Of a stretch of DNA of 41,128 bases, positions 7,046 to 8,402 are shown one piece after another. The DNA is taken from positions 1-41,128 of the IMG/VR virus record IMGVR_UViG_2718217884_000003; one strand, written 5' to 3'. Within the stretch, counting starts at the first letter, position 1. Each line of letters starts with the position of its first letter. A model generated the notes under the pieces. It was not told the origin of the DNA and made no database searches. It was given only the letters and a program-made list of their open reading frames with translations. Origin of the DNA: a virus (Duplodnaviria; Heunggongvirae; Uroviricota; Caudoviricetes). Position numbers and translations under genes: made by a program.

Positions 7046-7077
7046 AAAACCCGGCGCGGTGGCCGGGTTTATTTATT
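7046..7077 (-). terminator. Rho-independent terminator ending the cI operon (t-imm-like)
   Basis: Hairpin CCCGGC-GCGGTG-GCCGGG with a T-run on the minus strand (also T-rich on the plus strand); immediately downstream of the 216-aa gene stop. Confidence 0.6.
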
Positions 7078-7723
7078 GCTTAGGAGCTTGTTGTGATGAC
7101 GATTGGTTAGTTGGAGCGCTCGTTAATGGTTGCTGTGTCGGTACCTGTATTATAATTGGAGCCGGGCTGGTTACTGATGGTGACTTGTCATTGCCGGAGA
7201 TAATCCAACTTGAGGCTAACATCACGCCAGACAGAATCACAGTAACTAAAGTCAAGCCAACGGCCATCGCCCACTGAGTCGTTGTAAGTCCCGTTTTCAA
7301 ACCGCCGATTTCACCTTTAATTTCAGCAATACCTCTCTCAATAGAAGAAAATTGCTGAGTATAATAGGTTTTAAAGTCAGCTGATTCGCGACGCATTTCC
7401 GCAGCAATAGACTCTACCTCTGATTTGTTTTGTGAAAGCTTTGCGTCAAGTTCTTCTCTGGACATTCCGCTCACGCTTACCTCCAGGGTATCACTCTTCA
7501 TCGCTACATCTTCCTTACTTGGGCGCAAACCCGTTTCGTCCATGGCGTATGAAACTCTATTTGATACCTTAGCATCAATACCAATACTTTGGTACTGAGA
7601 TGGATCCCCATAAGGAGAAACGGTTGTCGCTGCTAGGGTTGCACTAACTATAATACTTGGAAGAACTGATGATGTTGTTCCTGAGGTAGGTTGAACTGAA
7701 GAAACTGGCTTCAGTCTTTCCAT
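7073..7723 (-). CDS. Coiled-coil protein with C-terminal transmembrane anchor (rex-slot cargo gene 3)
   Basis: 216-aa ORF; Ser/Thr-rich N-terminus, predicted coiled coil, hydrophobic helix WAMAVGLTLVTVILSGVMLASSWII, Pro/Gln/Ser-rich tail; 13-nt overlap with upstream ORF. Confidence 0.65.
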   Translation of the reverse strand: MERLKPVSSVQPTSGTTSSVLPSIIVSATLAATTVSPYGDPSQYQSIGIDAKVSNRVSYAMDETGLRPSKEDVAMKSDTLEVSVSGMSREELDAKLSQNKSEVESIAAEMRRESADFKTYYTQQFSSIERGIAEIKGEIGGLKTGLTTTQWAMAVGLTLVTVILSGVMLASSWIISGNDKSPSVTSPAPIIIQVPTQQPLTSAPTNQSSSQQAPKQ

Positions 7724-8118
7724 AGCCCATTATCCCTGAGAGCTACCTGTAATGATTTTACTAATGCAACAGCTTGATCCGGGCTCATTGAGACTGACAT
7801 GTTAGGGGTCAACTCAACTTTTACTTGGAAGCTATTATTTCCTTGCTCATCAGACTGCATGTGATGCTCAAATTCATGGCGGTAAAAAGTAATGATTGTT
7901 TCAGCACGATCAGGCGTAATAAGAACTGATGTGGCGGTCATGTGCTGAGGTATGATTTTAATAGTGTTATCTGACATAAGTATCCTTTTTGTTTCCTTAG
8001 TATTTTTTTGCATTGACATCAGAAATAGCGAATCCACAAGAGTATGAGTAAAGCTAATCAGTTTAGTGATACGGTGACTATTAAAGTGGTAAACCACATC
8101 AAAGCTCGCAGAGTGCAT
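7711..8118 (-). CDS. Hypothetical soluble protein (rex-slot cargo gene 2)
   Basis: 135-aa ORF co-oriented with cI; start uncertain (ATG 8118 lacks an obvious RBS; internal ATG at 7977 has AAGGA, giving 88 aa). Confidence 0.5.
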   Translation of the reverse strand: MHSASFDVVYHFNSHRITKLISFTHTLVDSLFLMSMQKNTKETKRILMSDNTIKIIPQHMTATSVLITPDRAETIITFYRHEFEHHMQSDEQGNNSFQVKVELTPNMSVSMSPDQAVALVKSLQVALRDNGLWKD

Positions 8119-8169
8119 ACCAGGCTGTCACACATGACAAAGTAACGAGGATGCCTGATCTCATAGCGC

Positions 8170-8325
8170 TCAAAGAGACATGCCGATAATGGCATTAACC
8201 ACGCATGACGCCATAAACACGCCGCCAACGATGAAGCTGGCTTGGTTCTTCCTGGTAGCGCCAAGAGTCAACAGAACCACTGAAAGGGCAAAAAAAGGTA
8301 TCGCGATTATGCTGAACGTGTTCAT
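8170..8325 (-). CDS. Small hydrophobic membrane peptide (rex-slot cargo gene 1)
   Basis: 51-aa ORF found by manual translation (below track size cutoff): MNTFSIIAIPFFALSVVLLTLGATRKNQASFIVGGVFMASCVVNAIIGMSL; RBS GAGGT 4 nt upstream; in-frame stop just upstream; about 78 nt downstream of cI. Confidence 0.4.
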   Translation of the reverse strand: MNTFSIIAIPFFALSVVLLTLGATRKNQASFIVGGVFMASCVVNAIIGMSL

Positions 8326-8402
8326 GTTGACCTCAACTTATTTCGATTCTCCATCACCCTTAATCCGCCGCCCCATGTGTTTGTTGTGATCCGTTGCTGG
8401 CC

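Follow-up and report, generated by a model that had tools for sequence, protein, structure and literature searches.

What stands beside the repressor of a lambda-immunity prophage when the rexA and rexB genes of phage lambda have given way to other cargo, and what could that cargo do for the lysogen? We addressed this question in one 41,128-nt stretch of viral DNA (hereafter, the window; positions 1 to 41,128 of IMG/VR record IMGVR_UViG_2718217884_000003, Caudoviricetes), in which the slot between the cI repressor gene and the Timm terminator holds three small genes. The cargo is the known gene 48/49 region of phage HK97, annotated long ago and without a characterised role. Its two larger genes encode a small soluble protein, gp49, and a predicted membrane protein, gp48, and we tentatively read this pair as a lysogen-expressed sensor-plus-membrane-effector exclusion module that would be analogous, not homologous, to RexAB. 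With still more reserve, we suggest that gp49-gp48 may be the founder of a modular two-component exclusion family, in which a PHROG 5820 effector would be combined with exchangeable partner/N-terminal cassettes that set phage specificity, in the rex and sieA slots.

The extent of the replacement was established by direct comparison with lambda (J02459). Positions 8407-9276 (cI and OR) match lambda 37231-38100 at 98% identity, and positions 6788-7069 (OL, PL and Timm) match lambda 35550-35826 at 89%. Since the match is limited to these two intervals, the substituted segment is 7070-8406, and it spans exactly the lambda rexB-rexA genes plus the cI-rexA spacer. The junctions fall at the cI stop codon at one end and at the rexB stop, just upstream of the Timm hairpin, at the other. 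A first-pass annotation, made from the letters of the window alone, had proposed lambda-like cI, OL and OR, foreign cargo in the rexAB slot and a recombination junction at the terminator hairpin; the comparison bears out all of these, with similarity to lambda on the hairpin side ending at 7069. The same annotation had called the block visibly richer in AT than cI and N; the direction is right, but with a GC content of 43.8% in the block, 45.5% in cI and 48.7% in N (50.4% in the whole window) the difference is mild, and within the block only gp49 and the spacer are as low as ~40%. Read along the minus strand from 9116 to 6195, the region consists of cI, a 51-aa open reading frame (ORF), an ORF of at most 135 aa, a 216-aa ORF, a hairpin with a T-run, PL/OL and N, so that the three predicted ORFs are indeed there. 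The features of the locus are as follows.

8403..9116, minus strand: cI repressor gene, lambda allele, 237 aa (98% nucleotide identity to lambda; Pfam HTH_3 and Peptidase_S24), presumably the first gene of a transcript that runs on into the cargo.
8326..8402, minus strand: intergenic region between cI and orf51, with the right-hand recombination junction at the cI stop (8403-8406; similarity to lambda stops at 8407).
8170..8325, minus strand: orf51, encoding a 51-aa protein with two hydrophobic segments (hydropathy, residues ~3-24 and ~29-51).
7978..8169, minus strand: spacer between orf51 and gene 49, 39.6% GC, holding the AGGA Shine-Dalgarno sequence of gene 49 at 7983-7986.
7711..7977, minus strand: gene 49 (gp49), 88 aa, small soluble partner with a predicted beta-beta-beta-alpha fold.
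7073..7723, minus strand: gene 48 (gp48), 216 aa, predicted tail-anchored coiled-coil inner-membrane protein (HK97 Gp48, PHROG 5820).
7038..7070, minus strand: Timm intrinsic terminator and left-hand recombination junction (terminator scan and folding).
6827..6888, minus strand: PL promoter and OL1-OL3 of lambda type (promoter scan, 89% identity to lambda, operator sequences); the promoter reads TTGACA-17-GATACT at 6855-6827.

The block had been presented as new sequence, and it is not: positions 6900-8420 are 99.8% identical at the nucleotide level to phage HK97 (AF069529), whose record names the two larger ORFs Gp48 and Gp49, and the interval 3315-17317 is 98% HK97-like overall. HK97 genes 48 and 49 were deposited in 2000. 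Every record found labels gp48 and gp49 'hypothetical protein', and neither a paper mentioning HK97 gp48/gp49 or their accession numbers nor a functional study was found in the literature searched, rex-slot replacements included. The identical block is also present in HK225 (beside a phi80-type repressor), in Lambdavirus PDP110P1 and in 52 of 5426 complete Escherichia coli genomes, among which its sequence conservation is 99.8-100%. The copy in strain S1 belongs to a prophage that is integrated beside sbcB.

The gene models were settled from start signals and homologues. The middle ORF had been given 135 aa (7711-8118); the ORF is present, but its length is 88 aa (7711-7977). The ATG at 7977 has the AGGA Shine-Dalgarno sequence 5 nt upstream, diverged gp49 homologues are 87-88 aa long without an N-terminal extension, and the 88-aa start is annotated in both HK97 and RefSeq; together these overrule the longer reading, whose extension, within the spacer, is probably not translated. 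A match of the 135-aa ORF to PDC-S52 (13.7 bits) was discarded as noise, as it covers residues 18-86 and so falls partly in that extension. The start of gp48 overlaps the stop of gp49 by 13 nt (ATGGAAAGACTGA), and the conservation of this 13-nt overlap in Klebsiella prophages (ATGGAAGGAGTAA) suggests translational coupling of the two genes. The full 216-aa reading of gp48 is backed by N-terminal similarity to the Klebsiella homologue (VLPSIIVSATLAATTVSP versus VFSALVVSATLTAMAVTP).

All three genes are real and under purifying selection: the gp48 core and orf51 have ratios of nonsynonymous to synonymous substitution rates (dN/dS) of 0.075 and 0.07-0.12, respectively, and for gp49 dN is 0.28 and dS is saturated. 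That the ORFs merely ride along as filler, without a function selected in the lysogen, would fit the failure of every database to reveal a function for them, but it is hardly credible in the face of this selection (dN/dS 0.07-0.12), of synteny kept across genera and repressor types, of the retained start/stop overlap and of the near-identity of the block among the 52 E. coli genomes.

The relatives of gp48 define a family with a constant plan. A first word-indexed search returned 11 clusters, and HK542c104, from the same slot of another lambda-immunity phage, is a diverged gp48 homologue. A motif scan of IMG/VR with E[LI][DNE]A[KRL][LF]x[QAR]NK, taken from the family alignment, found 77 loci, and the motif-scan and earlier loci gave a set of 82 loci with 43 distinct proteins (labels beginning with L denote individual loci compared here, inside or outside this set). 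gp48 and all its relatives match PHROG 5820, of unknown function (E-values of 1e-34 to 1e-97; 1e-68 for HK97-type gp48). The plan begins with a variable N-terminal region, followed by an invariant-rich helix, [ST][RK]xEL[DN]AKLxxNKAE, a heptad-repeat rod whose length varies by whole repeats, a TTxQW motif leading into a single transmembrane (TM) helix, and a Pro/Gln-rich tail that often contains PIIIQVPxQQ. In the window these parts are marked by three features.

7385..7462, minus strand: gp48 signature box, residues 88-113 (SREELDAKLSQNKSEVESIAAEMRRE), where the variable N-terminal region gives way to the conserved C-terminal module.
7196..7273, minus strand: gp48 TM helix, residues ~151-176 (hydropathy and alignments), with the conserved TTTQW before it and SSWIIS after it.
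7076..7195, minus strand: gp48 Pro/Gln/Ser-rich C-terminal tail, residues 177-216, presumed periplasmic, holding PIIIQVPxQQ.

The invariant residues of the signature box in the alignment are E91, A94, N99, K100, E102, A107, M110 and E113. The first-pass annotation had described the 216-aa product as a coiled coil with a single C-terminal TM helix, within a soluble-plus-membrane architecture, and both descriptions hold: gp49 is small and soluble, and gp48 has one hydrophobic segment at ~151-176, with helices predicted at residues 89-136 and 145-172 in an AlphaFold2 (AF2) model that is otherwise disordered (mean predicted local distance difference test score, pLDDT, 46.8). Because gp48 has no signal peptide and ~150 hydrophilic residues ahead of its only TM helix, its topology is most simply predicted to be N-in/C-out and tail-anchored. 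In the tail, PIIIQVPxQQ is kept in most, not all, subfamilies and is missing in those of Klebsiella and Xenorhabdus. Otherwise identical gp48 homologues of related prophages (L050, L051, L052 and L055) differ solely in the number of Pro-Ala repeats in the tail, which points to slippage-driven length variation.

Of the partners, gp49 matches PHROG 26809 (E 1.5e-69), and other types match PHROG 4231 and PHROG 5893. When 1.84 billion cluster representatives were searched exhaustively with a gp49 profile, ~8 of the 11 matches at E <= 0.001 were convincing relatives, none of them annotated, and the small partners in Yersinia, Kosakonia and P22-like loci are remote gp49 homologues (hhalign probability 93%, E 2.5e-7). 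The partners fall into at least three types, namely the gp49 superfamily, the HK542c105 type (all-beta, 144-165 aa, PHROG 5893) and a Cys-rich type. The C-terminal cores of gp48 proteins all fell in one BLAST cluster, and the N-terminal clusters were each confined to one partner cluster (adjusted Rand index 0.73). From this nesting of N-terminal clusters within partner clusters, on cores that form one cluster, the exchanged unit is the partner together with the gp48 N-terminal region, placed on a constant membrane module. The modular pattern is consistent with a specificity or sensor cassette on a conserved effector.

We compared the neighbourhoods of the 43 distinct gp48-like proteins and verified representative regulators by Pfam. 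A co-oriented partner ORF lies directly upstream in all 43, at a gap of -56 to +39 nt. The pair is directly downstream of a CI-type repressor (Peptidase_S24 and/or helix-turn-helix) in 34 of the 43, and directly downstream of a P22-type Mnt repressor (Arc and Repressor_Mnt), with a divergent P22 antirepressor (Ant), in five; the other four lie beside Arc-like ribbon-helix-helix genes on the other strand. A co-oriented maintenance repressor, CI-type or Mnt, is thus directly upstream in 39/43, a context that strengthens the case for expression in the lysogen. At least five repressor types are linked to the pair, including lambda cI, phi80-type cI (HK225) and a Rac/YdaS-YdaT-type switch. P22 itself has orf59a and sieA downstream of mnt, and with five of the 43 located in that interval, the gp49/gp48-type pair occupies both classical lysogen-expressed exclusion slots, cI-Timm (rex) and mnt-sieA.

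Two arrangements differ in detail. The Mnt-linked P22-like loci have a third co-oriented gene after the gp48 homologue (L056 4395-4622, L047 4398-4625 and L095 4283-4513), encoding a 75-76-aa membrane protein; the L056 product belongs to PHROG 7294, and the L095 product differs in sequence. This gene recalls orf51 as an extra small membrane gene, is unrelated to it and sits on the opposite side of the pair. In Xenorhabdus-type prophages (L008 and L042-L046) the pair is flanked by SLT/tail genes on one side and an Arc/antirepressor module on the other, rather than following the repressor; the partner there is Cys-rich, possibly a zinc ribbon, and a RelB/ParE toxin-antitoxin pair is nearby in L008.

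The occupation of the sieA slot in P22-like prophages brings up a different mode of action, in which gp48 would block DNA entry from the inner membrane, its periplasmic tail disrupting the tape-measure or ejection conduit of incoming phages in the manner of HK97 gp15 and P22 SieA, and gp49 would serve as a chaperone or assembly factor. The known injection blockers are likewise small prophage-expressed inner-membrane proteins (PMC10883804; PMC3594210), and the tail combines the conserved PIIIQVPxQQ with Pro-Ala repeat lengths that are polymorphic between near-identical prophages. We nevertheless consider an entry block unlikely, since the described injection blockers are single proteins, whereas the partner of gp48 is invariably present and diversifies with the cytoplasmic N-terminus; in addition, the tail motif is missing in two subfamilies, and most of the mass and conservation of gp48 is cytoplasmic or in the membrane.

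The same repressor linkage could be taken to mean that the pair tunes the lysis-lysogeny switch or induction of its own prophage, or host envelope physiology, for example as a membrane tether that sequesters a small regulator. The family is tied exclusively to maintenance repressors and is not seen in non-prophage defence islands. There is precedent as well: RexA and RexB are reported to bias the CI/Cro switch (bioRxiv 10.1101/2021.04.19.439022; PMC11077077), and 434 Hex shields its repressor from RecA (PMC3564112). The predicted fold of gp49 also bears a weak likeness, below significance, to the nucleic-acid-binding modules of Pur-alpha and PC4. The attachment of the pair to at least five unrelated repressor types, in both immC and immI contexts, argues against a repressor-specific interaction, however, and no DNA-binding or regulatory domain was detected, which leaves this explanation rather improbable.

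Expression of the block was assessed from its terminators and promoters. The Timm hairpin has a 9-bp stem (dG -19.1 kcal/mol, z -4.0) followed by UUUUCUUUG and is a strong intrinsic terminator. As the first-pass annotation had noted, it closely resembles the lambda terminator; it differs from lambda Timm in the loop alone. Its form, CCCGGCC-3 nt-GCGCCGGG plus a T-run, is common to lambda, mEp234, CL707, HK542 and HK225, and a Timm-like hairpin also follows the gp48 homologue in many loci, including heteroimmune Klebsiella and other prophages. The hairpin is kept almost base for base between the window (7038-7070), L004 (6903-6926) and positions downstream of gp48 homologues in L045, L048, L050, L062, L067 and L074. 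Its persistence behind unrelated cargo, as well as in other genera within heteroimmune prophages, suggests that Timm serves as a recombination boundary besides terminating transcription.

Upstream of Timm, folding revealed no terminator-like structure between cI and orf51 (z +0.47) or between orf51 and gene 49 (z +1.24), and the promoter scan gave no minus-strand promoter at threshold within the block. A short hairpin with a 5-bp stem at 8195-8180, inside the 3' end of orf51, was picked up by the terminator scan and judged too weak to act as a terminator. No Rfam family scored above chance within the block, and the 192-nt spacer gave no sign of an internal promoter or structured RNA, with promoter scan, Rfam and folding all at background. 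With neither a terminator nor a promoter at threshold between cI and Timm, the cargo is most simply taken to be co-transcribed with cI, on one pRM/pRE transcript that would end at Timm like that of cI-rexA-rexB.

Cargo of this kind has precedents in the slot. That the cI-Timm interval of lambda-immunity phages carries variable cargo is already on record (EF120457-61; PMC7067206): the wild lambda-immunity phages EF120457-61 differ in what lies between cI and the annotated Timm, and their GenBank entries place hicAB and one further ORF there in mEp234 and in HK106, a single 301-aa ORF in CL707, and two ORFs in HK542 and HK244. The repressor-N interval is a common moron site, for example for rexAB and bstA (PMC7067206), and genes that share a transcript with lambdoid repressors typically serve exclusion or defence, examples being rexAB, 933W stk and 434 hex (PMC3564112) and BTP1 bstA (PMC7067206). 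In some HK542-type prophages a DUF3024 gene (L079 2984-3325, E 2e-31) is inserted between the lambda-type cI and the partner; HK542 itself does not have this insertion, in which cargo is nested further within the slot.

HK225 preserves a trace of how such cargo travels. Directly behind the TAG stop of its own phi80-type repressor come 25 nt left over from the 3' end of lambda cI (WPEETFG-stop; L002 4366-4392, equivalent to 8403-8427 of the window), and the identical orf51-49-48 block follows. Read from the sequence, this relic is direct evidence of a cassette moving out of a lambda-immunity context.

The three genes of the block had been taken as one cargo unit; they resolve into the conserved gp49-gp48 pair and a separately acquired orf51. 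By tblastn, orf51 is absent from the Klebsiella, Yersinia, Kosakonia and Xenorhabdus gp48 loci tested, and the conserved unit is therefore of two genes, not three. In most other family loci the interval between repressor and partner is too short for orf51, and within E. coli the gene was seen in no genome apart from the 52 with the complete block. orf51 is preceded by a GAGG Shine-Dalgarno sequence at 8331-8334 and has 35 homologous clusters at 67-98% identity, nearly all of exactly 51 aa; the annotations of HK97 and of RefSeq E. coli genomes omit it. Plus-strand ORFs drawn over it (HK225_045, HK225_046 and a 69-aa window ORF at 8180-8389) were rejected as spurious, as they overlap the conserved, purifying-selected orf51, and are probably annotation artefacts. 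Diverged relatives of orf51 are chromosomal, non-prophage genes in Atlantibacter (between frmRA and pmrD), Lelliottia and Klebsiella. In Klebsiella michiganensis the homologue (L016/L017 4001-4183) starts 4 nt after a dinI-family gene, which hints that the host version may be SOS-regulated. orf51 thus appears to be a captured host small-membrane-protein gene, acquired separately from gp49-gp48. HK97 gp15 offers a parallel, for it is a relative of host YebO (PMC3594210) and so, like orf51, has chromosomal bacterial relatives.

A small hydrophobic product and an overlapping gene pair also invite comparison with addiction modules: gp49 would neutralise a membrane toxin (gp48 and/or orf51), and the module would stabilise the prophage. 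orf51 is of the size of small hydrophobic toxins, the small gp49-gp48 pair is translationally coupled with the putative neutraliser upstream, and the mEp234/HK106 slot does hold the hicAB toxin-antitoxin pair. We regard this as quite improbable: no recognisable toxin or antitoxin domain was found with Pfam, NCBIfam or PADLOC, the close relatives of orf51 stand alone in chromosomes and have nothing antitoxin-like next to them, and a membrane toxin would not be expected to be as large and elaborate as gp48. The idea also overlaps with the exclusion module that we favour, since toxin-antitoxin modules often double as abortive-infection systems.

That exclusion reading draws on the exact replacement of rexAB, the synteny with repressors, the modularity of the family, purifying selection and the precedent of exclusion genes co-transcribed with repressors. 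Under it, the block would be an accessory operon read through from cI, expressed from pRM in lysogens and from pRE at establishment, and ended by Timm. orf51 would be an independent part, a captured host-type two-TM protein, and gp49-gp48 the translationally coupled, conserved unit. gp48 would consist of a cytoplasmic N-terminal region, the 'SREELDAKLxxNKAE' helix, the rod, the TM helix and a periplasmic Pro/Gln tail, and gp49, a small cytoplasmic beta3-alpha protein, would dock on the gp48 N-terminal region and act as the specificity or sensor subunit. Upon superinfection by a heterologous phage, the complex would cause the coiled-coil/TM module to oligomerise. In this form the module would either damage the inner membrane or halt infection at a membrane-associated step, excluding the superinfecting phage and protecting the resident prophage. 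The interaction between gp49 and gp48 and the anti-phage role are both what we infer from position and architecture.

Several points weigh against this proposal. Neither Pfam nor NCBIfam gave anything above noise for gp48, gp49, orf51 or the family members scanned, and a profile search of PDB sequences gave only keratin-type coiled-coil noise. PADLOC-DB v2 (5027 models), a check that the first-pass annotation had suggested, gave no defence-system match above noise for the 14 family and partner proteins searched, with coiled-coil noise alone (E >= 0.001, <= 15 bits). The annotation had recognised no family, in agreement with these results: Pfam, NCBIfam, PADLOC and PHROG led only to PHROGs of unknown function, and no homology to RexA or RexB was seen. 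The predicted fold of gp49 has no significant structural neighbour, and the gp48 model is of low confidence. A weak internal promoter may exist in the spacer, and the co-variation of partner and N-terminus could stem from the mere contiguity of the swapped DNA. The family is seen nowhere but in prophage regulatory regions, not in non-prophage defence islands, and could serve prophage biology. Finally, the sole HK97 exclusion activity in the literature searched is credited to gp15 (PMC3594210).

Beyond the cargo, the flanking genes show further exchange. N (6195-6578, minus strand, 127 aa; Pfam N_peptide, PHROG 271) is a non-lambda allele despite the lambda-type cI, cro, OL and OR, representing mosaicism immediately outside the immunity region, as in HK97. 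To the left of N, a 156-aa ORF (5666-6136, minus strand) is HK97 Gp45, PHROG 1636 (unknown function), and has the lowest GC of the region, 36.9%; a putative terminator is annotated after the Gp45 gene in HK97, and the ORF looks like a further moron-like insertion between N and cIII. On the minus strand, positions 5390-5448 match the lambda cIII thermoregulator RNA element over its entire length (Rfam RF01804, 84 bits, E 5e-20).

How does the pair relate to known systems? Like lambda RexA and RexB, it sits in the cI-Timm slot co-oriented with cI, a positional likeness and not homology, with co-transcription presumed; both consist of one soluble cytoplasmic and one inner-membrane protein, and both are dispensable cargo swapped among lambda-immunity phages. 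They differ in gene sizes and order and have no sequence or profile similarity. RexB is polytopic, whereas gp48 has one hydrophobic segment (151-176) and orf51 two, and no RexB model was matched. RexB has been described as a membrane protein, and RexA has a DUF4747 domain (PMC6426606); gp49 and gp48 gave no RexA or DUF4747 match in Pfam, NCBIfam or PADLOC. In Gordonia phage CarolAnn, gp43 and gp44 form a Rex-like soluble and membrane pair that is co-transcribed with the repressor and has been proposed to act by sensor-activated membrane depolarisation (PMC6426606). HK97 gp49-gp48 is likewise a two-gene soluble and membrane pair beside an immunity repressor, but gp44 has a DUF4747 match and gp43 four TM segments, and the HK97 pair has neither.

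P22 SieA and HK97 gp15 are, like gp48, small prophage-expressed inner-membrane proteins, and the mnt-sieA slot is shared by the gp49/gp48-type pair; they act alone, however, whereas gp48 always has a soluble partner. No homology of gp48, gp49 or orf51 to SieA or gp15/YebO was found with Pfam, PHROG or NCBIfam. The CCDC90-like/DUF1640 family (PF07798) shares the coiled coil with a single C-terminal TM helix, and six of nine gp48 family members matched the last ~65 positions of its profile weakly; at 12.6-14 bits for gp48 against a gathering threshold of 33.5, and a best family E-value of 0.0016, this is an architectural likeness, not membership. PHROGs 5820, 26809, 4231 and 5893 already catalogue the proteins as clusters, but without function, pairing, repressor synteny or modularity. 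What is new here are the corrected gene models, the separate origin of orf51, a PHROG 5820 family with exchangeable partners at CI and Mnt repressors, and the HK225 transfer relic.

HK97 is a workhorse model and the lambda-type immunity region is very well understood, yet these companions of the repressor transcript have no known role. The gp49-gp48 pair is a credible candidate: a model phage may carry a new exclusion system in it. Should it prove to have no anti-phage role, it would be ordinary prophage cargo that still represents a presumably lysogen-expressed membrane function worth defining. If the exclusion reading is true, the pair would solve the Rex problem a second time, with non-homologous proteins and at exactly the same locus, the cI-Timm and mnt-sieA slots would exchange the same cargo, and the family would offer a natural modular system, with a conserved effector and a swappable partner or adaptor, for studying the evolution of specificity.

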